From positions 1 to 38,027 of the forward strand of contig JACRCA010000114.1 in the NCBI GenBank assembly GCA_016234425.1: a DNA stretch of 38,027 nucleotides, written 5' to 3'. Shown here in pieces: positions 1,949 to 27,123 of this stretch (the first letter of the stretch is position 1; every line of letters starts with the position of its first letter). Position numbers and translations under genes: made by a program. The stretch comes from Deltaproteobacteria bacterium (lineage in GTDB: Bacteria > Desulfobacterota > SM23-61). Below the pieces are notes generated by a model that was not told where the DNA came from, searched no databases, and saw only the letters and a list, made by a program, of their open reading frames with translations.

Positions 1949-2258
1949 CCATATTTCTTATTTCCGAGTATTTCTGCGATACTCTACTTCCCTGGTGGGA
2001 CATAGGCTTCCGTTTCCACGTGGGGCTATTCGCTGAAGAAACCTGGAGCTTGTATAATTTTTGCCACTTTCTGAGCTTATTATTAGGGGCATCTGGAGTC
2101 AAGAAATAAATTTTAAATTGTTCCTTGGTATTCGTAGGCTTATTCCTCTTTATTCCCCTTTAGAAAACAAATCAATTCCGTGATAGCAATTAGAAATATG
2201 CCAATTGCCATTTTTCTTCAAATAAACTATTTTTAGGTTATCCATCTATAAATGGTTC

Positions 2259-5200
2259 TTGCGCGAAAAAGCACAGGAGGTAGGGAACATCCCTCTCAGT
2301 CCGATCCTTGTTGAAGGGGCCCGGCAGAACAATCTCAAGTGTGTCTCCGTCCATGTCCCGGTCGGCGCGGTAACCGTTGTAACGGGCGTGGCTGGCGCCG
2401 GCAAGTCCTCCCTCGCCTTCGACGTCCTCTACGCTGAGGGATACCGTCGATATGTCGAGACCTTCTCCCCCTATGCCCGCCAGTTTCTCGAGCGACTGGA
2501 TCGTCCCGACGCCGATCGAATCGAGGATGTGCTGCCAGCGGTGGCGATCGGACGGACTGCACCTATCCGCACTTCCCGCTCGACCGTCGGAACGATGACC
2601 TCCATCGATGATTACCTCCGTCCACTTTACGCGCGGGCATCCGTGCTTCACTGTGAAGGCTGCGGCCAGCCCGTCCAGCGCCATTCCCCTTCCTCGATCT
2701 TCCAGGCCCTCTCGTTATCGGCGACAGGGAAGAAAGTGCTCATCTGTTTCACTCGCCAGGTTGGTCGAGTGAGTGCCGCCGCCCTCCGAGAAATCTGCCG
2801 GCAAGCCGGGTTTTCCCGCGTGCTGGAAGAGGGAGAAGGGGTCCCGCTCGAGGAGGCTAAGCTGCCTTCTGAGGGTGGTGCGATTACAGTGGTCCTCGAC
2901 CGGATCCCCATCGATCCAGATCGCCGCCGTCGGATCATCGACTCCCTGGAATCGGCCCTCCGCTTCGGTGGGGGTCGCATGGAGGTGTGGATCGAAGGTG
3001 AAGAAGAGCCAATGCGCTTCAGTGAGAAGCTCCAATGTGCTCAGTGCAACATTAACTATGTCGATCCCACACCGGCCCTCTTCTCCTTTAACAATCCCCT
3101 CGGCGCCTGTGAGACCTGCAATGGGTTCGGCCGGATCATCGATATTGACCCTGATCTGGTGGTTCCTGACCCCGACGTCAGCATCGCCGAGGGTTGCATA
3201 AAACCCTTCCAGACTCCCGCCTACAGCGGATGTCAGGACGATCTGTTGGGCTTTCTACGCCGGCGAAGGATCCCGGCTGACACGCCTTGGCGCGAACTCG
3301 ATGAGGCAGTTCGACGGGTGATCTGGGAAGGCGAGCCAGATGGACCTTGGTATGGGGTTAGTGGACTCTTCGACTGGTTGAAGGGGCGCCGCTATCGCAA
3401 GCAGGCCCGTATTTTTCTGGCCCGTTACCGACGCTATCTCACTTGCCCCGATTGTGGGGGTGGCAGAATTAAGGCCGCAGCGCTTCTCTTTCGCCTGGGA
3501 GGCAAGACCTTACCCGAGGCGGAGAGGATGGCGATCTCCGAGGCCGAGCCGTTCTTTCGCCATTGGTCGGCGCCCATGGGGGATCGGGCGACAGAACTCC
3601 TTCTGAGCGAAATTCGCGGGCGACTTCGGTTTCTCCTGGATGTGGGGCTGGGCTACCTATCTCTGGCACGCATGTCGCGAACCCTTTCAGGGGGTGAGAC
3701 CCAGCGGGTTACGCTCGCCACTGCCCTGGGAGCGTCCCTGACCAGCACGCTCTATGTACTTGACGAGCCCTCCGTCGGTCTCCATCCACGCGACAAAGAG
3801 CAATTGGCCAGGGTGCTGCGGAAACTGGCGGCAGCCGGAAATGCCATAGTGGTCGTGGAGCACGACCCCATCTTCATCCGCGCGGCGGATCGAGTGATCG
3901 ACCTCGGCCCAGGCCCCGGGCGGGATGGAGGCAAGGTGGTCCACCAAGGCACTGTCGCCGGGCTATTGCGCCGGGGAGATTCTCAGACCGCAGCCTATCT
4001 AAGGGGAGAACTACGCATCGCCAGGCCTCCTGAAGACCATGAACGCAGTCCGCACGAGTTGTGGGTCATCGGTGCCCGGGAAAACAACTTGAAGGATCTG
4101 ACTGTCAGCATTCCGTTGGGCCTAGTGGTATGTGTAACCGGAGTGAGCGGATCGGGCAAGTCGACGCTAATCGACCAAGTTCTTTACCGGAATATCCGCC
4201 GCCAGATGGGGCTCCAGGCGATGGAGCCCGGAGCCTGCAGGACCATCGAGGGCGTAGAGCACCTGTCGGACGCCGTCCTCATCGATCAATCTCCCTTAAG
4301 CCGCAGCTCCCGCATGAGTGCAGCCACCTACATGCAGGTTCTTGACCCATTGCGCACGGCCTTCGCGAGCACCCGACAAGCCCGGGCTTTGGGTCTCGGC
4401 CGTTCCGCGTTTTCCTTCAATTCCTCCGCCGGTGCCTGCCCTCACTGCAAGGGTTCCGGATACGAAAGAGTGGAGTTGCAGTTCCTGCCAGATGTGTACA
4501 TCCGGTGCCCTGGCTGTGATGGCCAGCGCTTCCGTCCCGACGTGTTGGAGGTTCGAATCCGGGGCTACAACATCGCCGAGGTGTTGTCCCTTCCCGCTGG
4601 GGAGGTGGCCAGACTGTTCAGCGACGACGAGGACATCGTGGGGGCCCTCCGGCCGCTTCTGGACATCGGGCTGGGGTATCTGTCCCTCTCCCAATCCGCC
4701 CCCACCCTCTCCGGGGGAGAAGCCCAGCGACTCAAGCTCGCCAGGCACCTAGCTGAGGCGCGCAAGGTACAGAACCTCCTCTTCATTTTAGACGAGCCGA
4801 CCACCGGGCTCCATCCAGCCAACATCTCCGAATTGGTAAGCGCGCTCCACCATCTGGTGCGGGCAGGCCATTCAGTGGTAATGGTCGAACATGATATGGA
4901 CGTTGCCCGGGCTGCCGATTGGATCATCGATCTCGGCCCGGAAGGCGGAGAACAGGGAGGGCGGGTCGTGGGCCAAGGCCTACCCGATGAGATCGCCAAA
5001 CTTGACACGCCCACCGGCTATGCGCTACGGAAAGCGGTCATCTGGTCGCTACGGGACGATCAGACGGCCCGTACTCGCTCGATCCGTCCAGGGCGTCCTT
5101 CTCCCCGAAATCGGGACATCCGCATCGTGGGAGCGCGAGAGCATAATCTGGACAACCTGCGGGTGAAGCTTCCGCGTAACCGCTTCATTGCGGTCACGGG

Positions 5201-7601
5201 GGTAAGCGGCTCGGGTAAATCCACCTTAGCTTTCGATGTGTTGTACACTGAAGGGCGCAGGCGATTTCTCGACTGCCTGCCCGCCTATGCCCGCCAGTAT
5301 ACCCCACCTCTGGCACGACCGGAAGTGGACCGCATCGAAGGAATTCCGCCTACCGTGGCCCTCGAGCAAAAGATGTCCCGGGCCGGGGCTATGTCCACAG
5401 CTGGTACCGCCTCGGAGGTCTACCATTATTTCCGGTTGCTCTTCGCCTCGCTGGGGGTACCGCACTGTCCGAAATGCGGCATTCCTGGAGAAGCCATTGA
5501 CGCCACCAGAATTATCGAACGAATCGTGGAACATTTCGCCGGCCAGGAAGTTATGATCCTGGCGCCTCTGATTCGGAAACGAAAGGGACATCACCGCGAG
5601 GTCATTGAGAGAGCAGCCAAGCATGGGTTCGATCAGGTACGCATCGATGGAAAAATCTACTCTACGGGGAAACCCCCGCGCCTTGACCGCTACAAGGTCC
5701 ACGACGTCGAGGTCGTAGTGGCCAGAAAAGAAGTTCAAGGTGGGCAGCGCGATGATTTTCGCTCCGCCGTGGAGCGAGGTCTGGCGGTTGGTGGCGGCAT
5801 GGTGATTGCGTCAGTGCCAGGCCGAGGAGAAGACCGGTTCTATTCTACCCGCCAGGCCTGCCCCGAGTGCGGCTCGGGTCTGCCCGTGCCCGACCCGAGG
5901 CTCTTTACCTGGAGCCAGAGGTTTGGGGCGTGCTCCCTGTGCGAAGGATCTGGCGTTGCCTGGTCGGTGGCGGAAGAGAAAAGTGAGCCTCCCCCGTGCC
6001 GGGAATGTGGTGGGACGAGACTCCGCCCGGAGGCCCTGGCAGTTCGGATTAACAACTGGAACATTGGCGATGTTGCCCGTCTGCCGATCCAGGATGCCCG
6101 AGCATGGGTGCAAAATCTCGGACCGATGCGGGAAGAGGTGGGCCAGCGCATAATCCCAGAACTTTTGAGTCGTCTAACTCTGCTCGACAAATTGGGCGTT
6201 GGCTACCTGACCTTGGATCGAGCTACCAACACCCTCGCCACCGGCGAGGCCCAGCGAATCCGGATCGCCGCGGAGCTGGCGTCAAACTTGCGGGGCGTAT
6301 GCTACGTCTTGGACGAGCCGACGGTAGGGCTTCATCCCGGAGATGTGGAAGCGCTTTTGCAGGCCCTCCTCCAACTGCGGGATCGAGGAAACACCGTAGT
6401 CGTGGTGGAGCACGAAGAGCCAGTCATTAGGTCCGCTGACTACGTGATCGATATAGGCCCAGGGGCCGGCTTTTCCGGCGGGCGGTTGGTAAAAACGGGC
6501 CCTCCTCGAGCCATTGAACGTTCGAAGAGATCCGTCACAGGACTTTGGTTGCGGGGTGAGGGGCAACCACCGTCCTGGGTCAGGCGCCCCCTCGCCGGCT
6601 GTGAGCGAATGGAGGTAGTGGGCGCGCGTCTCCACAACCTGCAAAATGTGACTGTGGAACTGCCGCTCGGGCGGCTGGTGGCCGTAACCGGGGCAAGTGG
6701 GTCGGGCAAATCCACTCTAATCCGAGACGTGGTGTACCGCGCCCTGAAGGCGAAGCTTTCCGGCCGCCCGCTACCACCGGTTCTCGAGGACCTGGGGGGG
6801 TGGGAATCGGTTAGCAGAGCCAAAGAGGTGGATGAGTCTCCCATAGGGCGCACCCCGCGCTCAGTTCCAGCGACCTACGTGGGAGTCATGGATTCCATCC
6901 GGGACATCTTTGCTCATACGCCGGACGCGCGGGCCCGTGGTTACGGTGCCGGTCGCTTTTCCTTCAATGTGGCCGGCGGCCGATGTGAGCGATGCCAGGG
7001 GCACGGGCGCCACCGAGTGGAGATGCCGCTCCTGCCCGTAGTATACATCCCATGTGAAGTGTGCGGGGAGAGCCGCTACAACCCGGACACCCTCGCCGTT
7101 ACCTTCAAAGGCAAATCGATCGCGGATGTCCTGGCAATGACAGTAGACGAGGCCTGGGATCTCTTCGAAGCTTTCCCCCAGGTGGTGCGTCCGCTGAAGT
7201 TCTTGTCGGAGATTGGCCTGGGCTACATCCAACTCGGTCAGCCGAGCCCGACCCTATCTGGCGGCGAAGCGCAGCGGGTCAAACTGGCGGCGGAGATGGC
7301 CATAAGTGGAAATGGTCGATCGTTCTACGTCCTGGATGAGCCGACAACCGGCCTCCATATGGCGGACGTGGCCAAGCTGGTCTCGGTGCTGCAACATTTG
7401 GTCAATCGGGGCGATACGGTTGTGGTCATCGAGCACGACCTGCACGTAGTTGCAGCTGCGGACTGCCTCATCGACTTGGGACCCGGGGGGGGCAAGGAGG
7501 GAGGTTGCGTTGTGGCCTGGGGACCTCCCGAAGAAGTAGCTCGATCCCAGCATTCGCGCACCGCCTTCTACCTCAGAAAATACCTACAGCAACATCGTTG
7601 A
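2259..7601 (+). CDS. UvrA-family protein, tandem head-to-tail duplication (four ABC ATPase modules, 1780 aa)
   Basis: Four Walker A motifs (GVAGAGKS, GVSGSGKS, GVSGSGKS, GASGSGKS). Four signature motifs (LSGGETQR, LSGGEAQR, LATGEAQR, LSGGEAQR). Four LDEPxxGLH Walker B motifs. Repeated CxxC zinc knuckles. N-terminus LVEGARQNNLK...VVTGVAGAGKSSLAFDVLYAEGYRRYVETFSPYARQF is classic UvrA. The second unit starts near 5110 (IRIVGAREHNLDNL). The start is uncertain: TTG at 2259 has no clear SD. Confidence 0.9.
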   Translation: MREKAQEVGNIPLSPILVEGARQNNLKCVSVHVPVGAVTVVTGVAGAGKSSLAFDVLYAEGYRRYVETFSPYARQFLERLDRPDADRIEDVLPAVAIGRTAPIRTSRSTVGTMTSIDDYLRPLYARASVLHCEGCGQPVQRHSPSSIFQALSLSATGKKVLICFTRQVGRVSAAALREICRQAGFSRVLEEGEGVPLEEAKLPSEGGAITVVLDRIPIDPDRRRRIIDSLESALRFGGGRMEVWIEGEEEPMRFSEKLQCAQCNINYVDPTPALFSFNNPLGACETCNGFGRIIDIDPDLVVPDPDVSIAEGCIKPFQTPAYSGCQDDLLGFLRRRRIPADTPWRELDEAVRRVIWEGEPDGPWYGVSGLFDWLKGRRYRKQARIFLARYRRYLTCPDCGGGRIKAAALLFRLGGKTLPEAERMAISEAEPFFRHWSAPMGDRATELLLSEIRGRLRFLLDVGLGYLSLARMSRTLSGGETQRVTLATALGASLTSTLYVLDEPSVGLHPRDKEQLARVLRKLAAAGNAIVVVEHDPIFIRAADRVIDLGPGPGRDGGKVVHQGTVAGLLRRGDSQTAAYLRGELRIARPPEDHERSPHELWVIGARENNLKDLTVSIPLGLVVCVTGVSGSGKSTLIDQVLYRNIRRQMGLQAMEPGACRTIEGVEHLSDAVLIDQSPLSRSSRMSAATYMQVLDPLRTAFASTRQARALGLGRSAFSFNSSAGACPHCKGSGYERVELQFLPDVYIRCPGCDGQRFRPDVLEVRIRGYNIAEVLSLPAGEVARLFSDDEDIVGALRPLLDIGLGYLSLSQSAPTLSGGEAQRLKLARHLAEARKVQNLLFILDEPTTGLHPANISELVSALHHLVRAGHSVVMVEHDMDVARAADWIIDLGPEGGEQGGRVVGQGLPDEIAKLDTPTGYALRKAVIWSLRDDQTARTRSIRPGRPSPRNRDIRIVGAREHNLDNLRVKLPRNRFIAVTGVSGSGKSTLAFDVLYTEGRRRFLDCLPAYARQYTPPLARPEVDRIEGIPPTVALEQKMSRAGAMSTAGTASEVYHYFRLLFASLGVPHCPKCGIPGEAIDATRIIERIVEHFAGQEVMILAPLIRKRKGHHREVIERAAKHGFDQVRIDGKIYSTGKPPRLDRYKVHDVEVVVARKEVQGGQRDDFRSAVERGLAVGGGMVIASVPGRGEDRFYSTRQACPECGSGLPVPDPRLFTWSQRFGACSLCEGSGVAWSVAEEKSEPPPCRECGGTRLRPEALAVRINNWNIGDVARLPIQDARAWVQNLGPMREEVGQRIIPELLSRLTLLDKLGVGYLTLDRATNTLATGEAQRIRIAAELASNLRGVCYVLDEPTVGLHPGDVEALLQALLQLRDRGNTVVVVEHEEPVIRSADYVIDIGPGAGFSGGRLVKTGPPRAIERSKRSVTGLWLRGEGQPPSWVRRPLAGCERMEVVGARLHNLQNVTVELPLGRLVAVTGASGSGKSTLIRDVVYRALKAKLSGRPLPPVLEDLGGWESVSRAKEVDESPIGRTPRSVPATYVGVMDSIRDIFAHTPDARARGYGAGRFSFNVAGGRCERCQGHGRHRVEMPLLPVVYIPCEVCGESRYNPDTLAVTFKGKSIADVLAMTVDEAWDLFEAFPQVVRPLKFLSEIGLGYIQLGQPSPTLSGGEAQRVKLAAEMAISGNGRSFYVLDEPTTGLHMADVAKLVSVLQHLVNRGDTVVVIEHDLHVVAAADCLIDLGPGGGKEGGCVVAWGPPEEVARSQHSRTAFYLRKYLQQHR

Positions 7602-8821: not shown

Positions 8822-9463
8822 CTAATCTTTTTCCCTAACCCCGATCTTTGGGCACAGTTTAGTCACCGGACAAACAGAGCATTTGGGTCTCTGGGCGTAG
8901 CATATTTGCCGGCCATGGAAAACGAGCTGATGGCACGTCCTGGTCCAACGGTCAGGGGGAATGACTTCCATCAATTCGAATTCAATTTTATCCGGGTCAC
9001 TGGACTTCGCCCAGCCCAGTCGATGGGTGACTCTTTTAACATGGGTATCTACAGCGATCGCTTGCTGGCCATAAGCATTCCCCAGTATGATGTTAGCAGT
9101 TTTTCGGCCCACTCCGGGGAGCGCAGTAAGTTCTTCCAGCGTCCGAGGAACCTGGCCATGGATTTTTTTTACGATCATCTGGCAACAGTTGATGATGCTT
9201 CTGGCCTTGTTGTGGTAAAAGCCTGTAGGGCGAATTTCCTCTTCGAGGGTTTGCAGGTCCGCTCCCGCGTAATCTGCCGCTTGGCGGTATTTTTTGAAAA
9301 GATCCTTGGTCACTACATTCACCCGCTCGTCCGTGCATTGCGCAGCCAAAATGGTGGCCATAAGAAGCTGGAGGGGATCTGCGAAATTAAGGGTCACGCG
9401 GGCATCCGCATATTCCTTCTGGAGGATGTCCAGGACCTTCATCGGCCTCTCGGTCTTTTTCAT
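8822..9463 (-). CDS. nth: Endonuclease III (HhH-GPD DNA glycosylase with Fe-S cluster loop)
   Basis: LPGVGRKTANIILGNAYG helix-hairpin-helix, catalytic D in AVDTHVKRV, and a C-terminal CysX6CysX2CysX5Cys (CYAQRPKCSVCPVTKLC). Confidence 0.9.
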   Translation of the reverse strand: MKKTERPMKVLDILQKEYADARVTLNFADPLQLLMATILAAQCTDERVNVVTKDLFKKYRQAADYAGADLQTLEEEIRPTGFYHNKARSIINCCQMIVKKIHGQVPRTLEELTALPGVGRKTANIILGNAYGQQAIAVDTHVKRVTHRLGWAKSSDPDKIEFELMEVIPPDRWTRTCHQLVFHGRQICYAQRPKCSVCPVTKLCPKIGVREKD

Positions 9464-11997: not shown

Positions 11998-12504
11998 ATG
12001 GAAAAAACCGCGCAGGTGCGGAAGATCGTGCTCACGGGCCTTTTCGCGGCCCTGGCTGTGGTCCTCTCCGGGATTCATTTTCCCATCGGACCGACAAAAG
12101 TGTTCCCCTTTCAGCATATGGTCAACGTCCTGGCCGGAATCCTGATCGGGCCCTGGTACGCAGCCCTCGCTGCTTTAATTGCCGGCATCATCCGCAATGC
12201 CATCGGTACAGGGACGATTTTCGCTTTCCCCGGTGGAATTCCGGGGGCCATCGTCGTCGGCTTAACCTACCGCTGGCTGCACAGAGATTGGGCGGCCATG
12301 ACGGAACCTTTAGGCACGGGCGTTGTGGGGGTCGCCCTGATCGTCCTCCTTCTCGGGCCCTTGATGGGAAAACAATTCGCCTTTGCCTTCTTTTTCACTG
12401 CCTTCATGGCTTCGAGCATCCCTGGCTCAGCCATCGGTTACTTCCTCCTGAAAACCCTGAGAAAGACCAAGGTCCTTGAGCTGCCAAGAATACCGGAAGC
12501 GTAA
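11998..12504 (+). CDS. thiW: ThiW-like ECF-type S component (predicted thiazole transporter)
   Basis: 168 aa, about 5 TM segments. HFPIGPTKVFPFQHMVNVLAGILIGPWYA...IRNAIGTGTIFAFPGGIPGAIVVGL matches my recollection of the ThiW consensus. It starts 8 nt after the larE-like stop. Confidence 0.75.
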   Translation: MEKTAQVRKIVLTGLFAALAVVLSGIHFPIGPTKVFPFQHMVNVLAGILIGPWYAALAALIAGIIRNAIGTGTIFAFPGGIPGAIVVGLTYRWLHRDWAAMTEPLGTGVVGVALIVLLLGPLMGKQFAFAFFFTAFMASSIPGSAIGYFLLKTLRKTKVLELPRIPEA

Positions 12505-24431: not shown

Positions 24432-24537
24432 ATCTGGCTGGCAGCCAAAAGCTACTTCCCCAGGAAGGGTTTTCTTTAACCTTGCAGATGAAATAGGGTT
24501 GTGGTATTTTTTCAATTGGATGGTTTGGGAGGAAAGA

Positions 24538-27123
24538 ATGAACCGGCGATATGATCCTCAGAGCGTGGAAAAAAAGTGGCAGCAGATATGGGAAGAACGC
24601 CGGCTCTTCCAATCCGCGGAGGATCCCCAGCGAAAAAAGTATTATGTTTTAGAAATGTTTCCCTATCCTTCGGGGAAAATCCACATGGGGCACGTGCGGA
24701 ATTATTCCATCGGCGATGTAGTGGCTCGATACAAGCGGATGCGCGGATTCAACGTGATCCATCCCATGGGTTGGGATGCTTTCGGGATGCCGGCGGAGAA
24801 TGCCGCGATCCAACATGGCGTTCATCCAGCAAAATGGACTGAGGATAACATCGCCGCCATGAAAAAACAACTTCGGCGGATGGGTTTTAGCTATGACTGG
24901 AGGCGAGAACTGTCTACCTGTGATCCGTCATACTATCGCTGGGAACAATGGCTGTTCCTGAAGATGTACGAGAAAGGACTGGCTTACAAGAAAAGCTCTT
25001 CGGTCAACTGGTGCGAAAGCTGCCAGACCGTGCTGGCCAACGAACAAGTGGAGGCCGGGAGATGTTGGCGCTGCAGCGAAGAGGTGATCCAAAAAGAGAT
25101 GGAAGGATGGTTCTTCAAGATCACGGCCTACACAGAAGAATTACTAGATTATTGTGACAAACTCCCTGGCTGGCCCGAGCGGGTAATTACCATGCAGAAG
25201 AATTGGATTGGTAAATCCGAGGGAGCAATCATTCACTTTCCTCTGGGGGAAAGAGAGGGCTTTATCCCGGTTTTTACCACCCGGCAGGATACGATCTTCG
25301 GGGCAACTTTCATGATCTTGGCCCCGGAACATCCCCTGACCTTGGAGCTTTCGGGAAGAACACCCCAGGAGAGGGAAGTGAGAGAGTTTGTGGAGCGAAT
25401 CAAAAAACAAGACCGGGCTAAGCGTACGGCAGAGGATTATGAAAAAGAAGGACTTTTTATCGGGGCCTTCTGCCAAAATCCTCTCACCGGCAAGGAAATC
25501 CCCATCTTTGTAGGGAACTTTGTCTTGATGGATTACGGCACGGGAGCAGTGATGGCTGTCCCTTCCCATGATCAGAGGGATTTCTATTTTGCTAAGAAAT
25601 TTAACCTTCCCTTAGTGGTGGTCATTCAGCCGGAGGGAGAGCCTTCCTTAAGCACGGAGAGGATGACCGAAGCTTATACGGGAGAAGGTATTTTAGTCAA
25701 TTCCGGTCCTTTCAACGCAATGCCCAGCTGTCAGGCCCGACAAGCCATTGCCAGCTATTTGGAAGAAAAAGGCCTTGGCCAAGGAGCTGTGACTTATCGC
25801 TTGCGGGATTGGGGAATTTCGCGGCAGCGGTACTGGGGAACCCCCATCCCGATCATTTACTGCCAGGAATGTGGAACAATGCCGGTACCAGAAAAAGATC
25901 TGCCAGTAGTACTTCCTCAAGATGTCCAGCTCACCGGTCTGGGAATATCCCCCCTATCTAACGTTCCCGAATTCGTGAACACTTCCTGCCCCCGATGCAG
26001 AAAGCCGGGCAAACGGGAGACGGATACCATGGATACTTTCGTGGAGTCCTCCTGGTACTTTGAGCGCTTCTGCAGCCCGCAAGAGAATCGGGGAATGTTT
26101 GACCGGCAGAAAGTTCATTACTGGATGCCTGTGGATCAGTACATCGGCGGGATCGAACATGCTATCCTCCATTTGCTCTACTCTCGGTTTTACACCAGAG
26201 TCCTCCGGGATTTCGGGCTGGTGAATTTTTCTGAACCTTTTACCAACCTTCTAACGCAAGGGATGGTCGTTAAGGAAACACATTTCTGCTCCCGGGACGG
26301 CTTTCTCTTCCCGGAAGAGGTAGAGGATGAGAAGACTTGCAGAAAATGCGGGCATCCGGTCCAGGTGGGGCGCACAGAGAAGATGAGCAAATCGAAAAAA
26401 AATGTAGTGGAACCCGATTCCTTGATGGATAAATATGGGGCAGACACCGTGCGCCTTTTCTGCCTTTTTGCCTCACCGCCAGAAAAAGACCTGGAGTGGA
26501 ATGAACAGGGAGTAGAAGGATCTTTTCGCTTTTTGAATCGGGTCTGGCGCCTGATGGAGGAATGGGCGGGAATATCAGGGAGGGCGGAATTGCCCCGGAA
26601 GGAGTGGAATCTTCCCGAAGCCCTTCGCCATCTGCGGCGAAAGACGCATCTGACCATCAAAAAGGTTACGGAAGATATCGAAAACCGCTTCCATTTTAAC
26701 ACGGCCATCAGCGCCATTATGGAACTGGTGAACCTCCTTTACCAAGACGAAGGAAGATTGGAGGATAAGACCCCCTTTACTTTAGGGGTCTGGCGAGAAG
26801 CGCTGGAATCGATCGTCATCCTCCTTTCGCCCATTGTCCCCCACATCTGCGAGGAACTCTGGGAAATACTGGGCCAGGCCGAGAGCGTTTCCCGAGTTTC
26901 CTGGCCTGAGTATGAACCTGAAGCCCTAAAGGACGAAGAGGTTCTGATTGTCATTCAGGTGAACGGGAAACTCCGCGGTCGAGTCATGGTGGGGGTTCAT
27001 GCCTCCGAAGAAGAGGTGAAAGAGGCGGTCCTGGCCAACCAGCGAGTTCAAGAATTTTTAAAAGACCAGCCTGTCAAGAAGTTCGTCCTGGTCCCGAAAA
27101 AATTGGTCAATTTAGTCGTATGA
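24538..27123 (+). CDS. leuS: Leucyl-tRNA synthetase
   Basis: ATG 24538 after [24 protein letters not shown] (HIGH motif), KMSKSKKN (KMSKS motif) and CP1/editing region motifs. 861 aa. Confidence 0.95.

Follow-up and report, generated by a model that had tools for sequence, protein, structure and literature searches.

Canonical UvrA is a head-to-head dimer in which the ATP sites are formed head to tail within each protomer, and its insertion domain is the domain that clamps DNA. The number of UvrB molecules loaded by UvrA and the roles of its ATP sites have long been debated (PMC3167621). Class II UvrAs are also defined (PMC3167621), and in those of class IIa neither the first zinc module nor the UvrB-binding domain is present (PMC9328131). 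A fusion of two UvrA units in one chain has been noted for Planctomycetes, where the passage concerned describes the fused protein as the UvrA (PMC8567305). That passage held the only mention of the fusion in the literature we searched on duplicated, tandem, fused or 'class III' UvrA, and no functional study was found there. Here we analyse such a gene, a double uvrA at 2259..7601 on the forward strand of a 38,027-nucleotide (nt) stretch of DNA, hereafter the window, from a Deltaproteobacteria bacterium (assembly GCA_016234425.1, contig JACRCA010000114.1). An original prediction, made from the letters of the window, had read it as a fused double UvrA acquired as a GC-rich island and had named tandem UvrAs as a separate group, which the published passage bears out. 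We consider it probable that the gene encodes a single-chain, asymmetric UvrA pseudo-dimer, which belongs to an ancient tandem-fused family and has been inherited vertically in a Syntrophaceae-like lineage of groundwater Desulfobacterota.

As had been predicted, two UvrA units are encoded in one unbroken open reading frame (ORF), which runs for 1780 codons without interruption and yields 1780 amino acids (aa) from a program-assigned TTG start, the stop codon being included in the coordinates. When the protein was compared with solved structures using phmmer, unit 1 (aa 15-926; 2301..5036, +) aligned end to end with residues 25-959 of the class I UvrA 9gxk_A (770 bits), making it a complete class I-like unit. 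Unit 2 (aa 955-1780; 5121..7598, +) aligned with residues 24-304 and 420-959 of 2r6f_A (821 bits) and skipped residues 305-419, the stretch of the insertion domain. A basic linker of about 28 residues (aa 927-954; 5037..5120, +) joins the two units, and its predicted local distance difference test score (pLDDT) in an AlphaFold2 model falls below 50 at aa 928-950. All four ATPase modules were recovered by a motif scan of the forward strand, with Walker A motifs at 2385-2411 and 4140-4166 in unit 1 and at 5199-5225 and 6690-6716 in unit 2, and Walker B motifs at 3750-3773 and 4779-4802 in unit 1 and at 6300-6323 and 7323-7346 in unit 2. Walker A, Walker B and the H-loop are intact in 4/4 modules. 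The signature reads LSGGE at 3684-3698 and 4707-4721 in unit 1 and at 7254-7268 (signature II) in unit 2, leaving signature I of unit 2, LATGE at 6234..6248, as the sole altered ATPase motif. The protein also carries six Cys4 zinc modules with 24/24 cysteines present, the third of each unit lying at 4437-4523 and 6984-7067. For all four Walker A motifs, the zinc knuckles and the degenerate LATGE, the positions given in the original prediction were right to within a few bases.

The two units differ most clearly in the domains held between their zinc cysteines. In unit 1, the second zinc module (3108..3467, +) spans 104 aa between the knuckles CETCNGFG (3108) and CPDCGGGR (3444) and encloses the sole insertion domain of the protein (Pfam UvrA_DNA-bind, 47.7 bits, profile positions 1-65 of 110), whereas the corresponding module of unit 2 (5931..6020, +) has 14 aa between CSLCEGSG (5931) and CRECGGTR (5997) and no insertion domain. 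An insertion domain in the first unit but not in the second had been anticipated from the spacing of the knuckles, and the spans and the alignment gap now agree on it. The UvrB-binding domain, in contrast, is found twice, as had also been proposed. It is diverged within the first zinc module of unit 1 (2649..3047, +; Pfam UvrA_inter, 39.8 bits, profile positions 32-106 of 109) and canonical within that of unit 2 (5463..5873, +; 97 bits, profile positions 4-106 of 109), both scores exceeding the cut-off of 23.3 bits. The domain of unit 2 also matches the isolated UvrA interaction-domain chains 4dfc_B and 3fpn_A. The units are 44% identical to each other over 535 aa; against E. coli UvrA, unit 1 is 40% identical over 936 aa and unit 2 is 49% identical over the C-terminal 536 aa. 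A partial AlphaFold2 model of aa 590-1780 (mean pLDDT 84, predicted template modelling score 0.64) has a disordered linker and a fold that matches UvrA chains with TM-scores of 0.7-0.9, normalised to the target. Several stretches score far above the UvrA cut-offs of NCBIfam. The score against NF001885, a family of 1809 positions named 'excinuclease ABC subunit A', is 1129.9 bits, below its cut-off of 3054, and the double UvrA therefore does not belong to this equivalog, which we take to be a narrow chlamydial one.

We then asked how widely this arrangement is shared. A search of 5.8 billion proteins returned at least 8000 matches, and the best 120, which we inspected, were all 1737-1883 aa long, with 99% query coverage and 62-91% identity. 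Named taxa among these 120 include Desulfobacterales, Syntrophobacterales, Thermodesulfobacteriota, Desulfosalsimonas, Anaeromyxobacter, Myxococcales, Polyangia and Acidobacteria. Genome scans added full-length doubles at 39-50% identity in Lentisphaerae, Kiritimatiellia, Verrucomicrobiota, Fibrobacter and Nitrospirota, as well as in many Gamma- and Betaproteobacteria and other Desulfobacterales; named isolates that carry a double are Thiocystis violacea, Aromatoleum tolulyticum, Achromobacter, Bordetella, Castellaniella and Limnobacter. When a library of 50%-identity clusters was queried with unit 2, the best 150 representatives were all doubles or fragments of doubles, about 100 of them longer than 1700 aa and in several layouts. 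The double uvrA of the window is thus not a rarity; the family in which it is an ordinary member is large, old, routinely annotated and little studied.

The asymmetry of the two units is common to all the doubles that were aligned. In an alignment of 46 doubles from all clades found, the second zinc span measures 103-122 aa in unit 1 and 8-43 aa in unit 2 without exception (46/46), whereas the first zinc spans of both units measure 116-142 aa. The linker is 20-52 aa long, and each zinc cysteine is kept in 42-46 of the 46 sequences. All Walker A, Walker B and H-loop motifs and three of the four signatures keep their consensus. At the fourth, signature I of unit 2, the close clade (33 of the 46) has LSTGE or LATGE and the distant clade (12) has LSGGE; the form GVAGAGKSS of the first Walker A is confined to the close clade.

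Each unit was entered separately into a quick maximum-likelihood tree, together with 25 canonical UvrAs of named genomes and an outgroup of four single-unit proteins that are class II-like; its support values are Shimodaira-Hasegawa-like approximate likelihood ratio (SH-aLRT) values only. The canonical sequences were taken from the genome scan, the unit 2 search of cluster representatives having been filled by doubles. Unit 1 sequences formed a clade (100), as did unit 2 sequences (100) and canonical UvrAs (99), and the deep order of these three clades was weak (87). Sub-clades within the unit 1 clade were mirrored within the unit 2 clade. Since the unit clades are separate and mirrored and the units of the window are 44% identical, the halves are not recent duplicates and the pattern fits one ancient fusion from which the doubles derive, their halves having co-evolved since. 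The original prediction had raised the question of whether the halves are sisters or of unlike origin. In the tree, each unit groups with its counterpart in other doubles and neither with canonical UvrA. The exception is the double of Fibrobacter, which looks like a separate fusion because its unit 1 groups among canonical UvrAs.

Alongside the doubles, we encountered at six loci (L020, L021, L022, L024, L025 and L028) a single-unit UvrA paralogue of about 840 aa, starting GFVRVRGAREHNL, which is 70-93% identical across metagenome-assembled genomes (MAGs) of Acidobacteriota, Myxococcota and 'Deltaproteobacteria' and about 40% identical to E. coli UvrA. These singles were considered as canonical UvrAs and rejected on account of that low identity, and they served as the class II-like outgroup. 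This highly conserved paralogue looks like a class II-type protein, one that is either being spread between phyla or strongly constrained.

Several lines of evidence place the gene in its host lineage over a long time. The leucyl-tRNA synthetase (LeuS) of the window is 85, 82, 78 and 77% identical to LeuS of Syntrophaceae MAGs, and the sequencing runs that contain the window sequence are groundwater metagenomes. The nearest relatives of the double UvrA come from MAGs of Deltaproteobacteria, Syntrophobacterales and Desulfobacterales, in agreement with the host taxonomy given by LeuS, and in MAG JAPLIW01 the two proteins have diverged alike (77.1% identity for LeuS and 75.5% for the double UvrA, over the 640 aa available). 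A sister contig from another run, L082, can be aligned to the window for 6151 nt (89.4% nt identity), a stretch that takes in the AT-rich spacer upstream of the gene, the gene itself and sequence of the downstream SnoaL-like gene. The gene itself is 90.4% identical and free of gaps, compared with 83% for the upstream spacer and 89% for the downstream stretch. Differences between the two copies amount to 5.4%, 4.4% and 19% at codon positions 1, 2 and 3, indicating purifying selection. GC content at third codon positions (GC3) hardly differs between the copies (window 0.676, L082 0.668), and third-position changes between them are balanced, with 143 strong-to-weak and 128 weak-to-strong. Because L082 shares the gene, its flanks and its GC3, with balanced changes, both the gene and its step in GC predate the split of the two lineages and the step is not decaying. 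Among relatives as close as these, leuS itself varies: at loci L085-L089, whose LeuS is 77-85% identical to that encoded at 24499-27123 in the window, GC ranges from 0.44 to 0.60 and GC3 from 0.43 to 0.82. These wide differences among close relatives mean that genome base composition is shifting fast in the Syntrophaceae-like group.

As to function, its domains make it most likely that the double UvrA works in excision repair. By analogy with canonical UvrA, the two units would fold back on each other like the protomers of the UvrA2 dimer, and the protein would scan DNA for helix-distorting lesions using ATP. A lesion would then be passed to UvrB mainly through the docking domain of unit 2, so that the complex would be lopsided by design. 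Given the head-to-tail ATP sites of the canonical protein, the altered signature I may retune the distal ATP site of unit 2.

A number of observations weigh against this reading of a vertically inherited repair pseudo-dimer. The packing of the units into an intramolecular dimer is itself drawn from analogy. The annotated ORFs of the window (38 kb) include no uvrB, uvrC or mfd, so that it is the domains of the protein that point to excision repair. Vertical descent probably does not hold throughout the family either, since the distant sub-clades of the tree mix Verrucomicrobiota, Nitrospirota and Pseudomonadota, making horizontal transfer likely somewhere in its deep history. Further, the gene has a synonymous GC3 excess of +0.10 (z about 2.5) that is real and has no mechanistic explanation. 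Lastly, the Burkholderiales homologue lies on secondary replicons and for that reason looks like an accessory copy.

The last point leads to the alternative that survives best, namely that the double UvrA is an accessory paralogue beside a canonical uvrA of 940 aa, dealing with special lesions, DNA-bound compounds or stress, with or without UvrB. We regard this as unlikely, though it deserves to be taken seriously. Among plasmid records, megaplasmids or chromids of Ralstonia, Burkholderia and Mycetohabitans have full-length copies that are about 44% identical and, wherever a feature is given, annotated as uvrA; in these genera the main chromosome generally has a normal uvrA of its own. Other Desulfobacterota also have canonical UvrAs, and the gene is solitary, with uvrB and uvrC not nearby in the window. 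However, both units retain the UvrB-binding domain, which is missing from the class II (non-repair) UvrAs, and no conserved partner gene accompanies the double uvrA, its neighbours varying among the window, L081, L245 and L002. The published passage on Planctomycetes also presents the fused protein as the UvrA (PMC8567305). A query with a Desulfuromonadaceae UvrA matched only canonical proteins of Desulfuromonadales, none of them from a genome known to hold a double.

The pseudo-dimer that we favour could also be taken further, to a protein that is the sole UvrA of its lineage and an obligately asymmetric damage sensor, although we put this forward as a tentative and rather doubtful extension. 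Unit 1, with the only insertion domain of the protein, would then be a permanent DNA clamp, and unit 2, with its canonical docking domain and retuned distal ATP site, a permanent loader of UvrB, such that one UvrB would be loaded in a fixed orientation. If this were true, nature would have built into a single chain the lopsidedness of the UvrA2-UvrB1 complexes seen in recent cryo-electron microscopy structures, such as PDB 9GA3.

The second alternative, advanced by the original prediction, is that the gene is a single-gene island imported recently from a GC-rich donor. Its starting point is sound, since GC does shift at the ORF borders, from 0.34-0.44 upstream to about 0.61 inside and 0.45-0.51 downstream. 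One flank had been misjudged, the ldcA/Gate-domain flank measuring 44-47% GC instead of about 40%. The gene has 61.3% GC, whereas the 26 ORFs around it average 50.9%, and this value (z about 3.5) lies outside the range of the genes of the window. The claim of GC-rich third positions stands insofar as a GC3 of 0.676 is high (z about 2.3-2.5), but it falls within the range of the window's genes (maximum 0.696), being exceeded by one small gene only, thiW at 11998-12504. This sharp step, from about 0.50 to 0.61, and the synonymous GC3 excess both speak for import, as do homologues 62-65% identical in high-GC Myxococcota and Acidobacteriota.

To separate protein composition from codon choice, the amino-acid sequence was recoded with the synonymous codon usage of the neighbours. 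The expected GC obtained in this way was 56.6%, the highest in the window (neighbours: mean 51.8%, maximum 55.4%), and about half of the GC excess is therefore due to protein composition and the remainder to the GC3 excess; the observed value exceeds the expected one by 0.047 (z 3.0). Across phyla, moreover, the double uvrA is richer in GC than its neighbours at 19 of 21 homologous loci, by 0.01 to 0.10 in GC and by 0.02 to 0.19 in GC3, and at the remaining two, both high-GC loci, a crude ORF caller took the wrong strand. The sister lineage represented by L082 has the gene in an identical context with equally diverged flanks and a like GC3, LeuS and the double UvrA have diverged to the same extent in JAPLIW01, and the nearest relatives belong to the host's own phylum. 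Nor does the window bear marks of mobility: it has no tRNA gene that could serve as a target, its annotated ORFs include no integrase, and the gene is not flanked by credible repeats. The lack of uvrB, uvrC and integrase nearby had been noted correctly in the original prediction; horizontal acquisition as a single-gene GC island, in contrast, is not supported and by now largely refuted, and we hold it to be very improbable. The high GC is that of a conserved protein rich in Gly, Arg, Ala and Pro with a family-linked GC3 bias, and not the result of a recent import. The only flanking direct repeat, of 15 nt at 2134 and 8169, was considered as an att-like site and rejected, because chance alone is estimated to give about one such pair in 7.1 kb and because L082 lacks the left copy.

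Homologues are at times called as two overlapping genes, as at L083 (8001-13444; 956+858 aa) and L084 (6001-11507; 962+873 aa), where the genes overlap by 4 nt on long-read metagenome contigs. The split junctions fall at G6 or C4 homopolymer runs, and the 90% cluster of the split forms also contains fused proteins of 1826 and 1835 aa, so that the splits are more likely to be artefacts than the fusions and are probably frameshift errors. On the same grounds, together with their long-read source, we rejected these two cases as natural heterodimers. That the window's own frame is an assembly or sequencing artefact joining two adjacent uvrA-like genes, a notion to which such split calls in long-read assemblies lend their one point of support and which the original prediction had asked to exclude near 5040-5110, can be dismissed as next to impossible, since a separately assembled Logan contig of 499 nt (possibly from the same sample as the window) matches 4919-5417 across the unit junction with 0 mismatches, L082 from a different run has an uninterrupted 1780-aa frame of identical length, fused homologues of equal length number in the thousands, and the split calls are themselves the likelier artefacts.

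Upstream, the gene is separated from the divergent ldcA by an AT-rich spacer of 310 bp (1949..2258, +), whose GC of 0.365 agrees with the earlier description. The only promoter-like site upstream of the double uvrA lies at 2205-2233, and its -35 element is overlapped by an imperfect palindrome of 26 nt at 2192-2217 (AGAAATATGCCAATTGCCATTTTTCT). Compared with L082, the last 90 nt or so of the spacer, which include the palindrome and run up to the start codon, are near-identical, and the distal part has indels. The palindrome is a possible candidate operator. The TTG start at 2259 has no Shine-Dalgarno motif. Most homologues (M-x-x-S-P-I...) have their ATG start at the place of an ATC codon at 2289..2291 (+), which is ATT in L082 and has GGAGG 8 nt upstream. 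Translation may thus begin at a non-canonical AUC/AUU codon at 2289, or the start may have moved 10 codons upstream.

The other genes of the window are housekeeping genes, including leuS, pilMNOPQ, feoB, holA, murJ, rny and lptE. The downstream SnoaL-like gene was considered as a conserved partner of the double uvrA and rejected, being absent beside the homologues in L081, L245 and L002. A base-excision-repair gene of the HhH-GPD (endonuclease III-like) type lies at 8822-9463 (-), about 1.2 kb downstream of the double uvrA, and its position is probably a coincidence because the gene was not seen beside the homologues in L081 or L245. L081, a contig of 241 kb, carries a double uvrA that is 78% identical, with an ldcA homologue at 25009-25295, about 10 kb downstream. 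The product of this homologue has 63% aa identity to that of the window's ldcA (1094-1948), which in the window sits directly upstream of the double uvrA, and its placement in L081 is a loose remnant of a common neighbourhood.

As a discovery, the double uvrA carries little weight, because the fused form is common, is automatically annotated as uvrA and has already been noticed in print. Its value may lie rather in its use as a tool. In a symmetric homodimer any mutation hits both protomers, whereas a single chain with distinguishable halves would allow them to be mutated separately, be it at one ATP site, in one UvrB-docking domain or in the sole insertion domain. The locus also holds a caution for genome scans, as a sharp step in GC over one gene can be a property of a protein family, through protein composition and a stable GC3 bias, and does not necessarily point to recent transfer.

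To conclude, we compare the double UvrA with the described members of its superfamily. With class II UvrAs (UvrA2, DrrC and Ecm16), paralogues whose role is uncertain or drug-related, it shares a UvrA-family double ATP-binding cassette (ABC) ATPase with zinc modules. Unlike them, however, it keeps the first zinc module and the UvrB-binding domain in both units, and a class II role is therefore unlikely; the DrrC- or Ecm16-like protection against DNA-intercalating natural products that the original prediction had offered as an alternative is not borne out. The class II-like singles also form the outgroup of the tree, and no biosynthetic cluster was found among the window ORFs around the gene. 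Canonical class I UvrAs (TIGR00630 / NF001503) are represented here by E. coli UvrA and the structures from G. stearothermophilus (2R6F/3UWX), T. maritima (3PIH), M. tuberculosis (3ZQJ) and C. thermocellum (9GXK), with which the double UvrA shares the full domain order in unit 1 and two ABC and three Cys4 zinc modules in each unit. It differs from these homodimers of a chain of about 940 aa in being one chain of 1780 aa with two diverged units, in the loss of the insertion domain from unit 2, leaving one such domain instead of two, and in having two UvrB-binding domains of unequal conservation. The family of the window's protein is that of the tandem-fused proteins annotated as 'excinuclease ABC subunit UvrA', which likewise have two units and four ABC modules in a chain of about 1800 aa. 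The close clade to which the window's protein belongs is set apart from some of these by GVAGAGKSS and L-S/A-T-G-E, the planctomycete and chlamydial sequences being compared by description only. With the 46 aligned doubles, it has in common an insertion domain in unit 1 only and both UvrB-binding domains retained.

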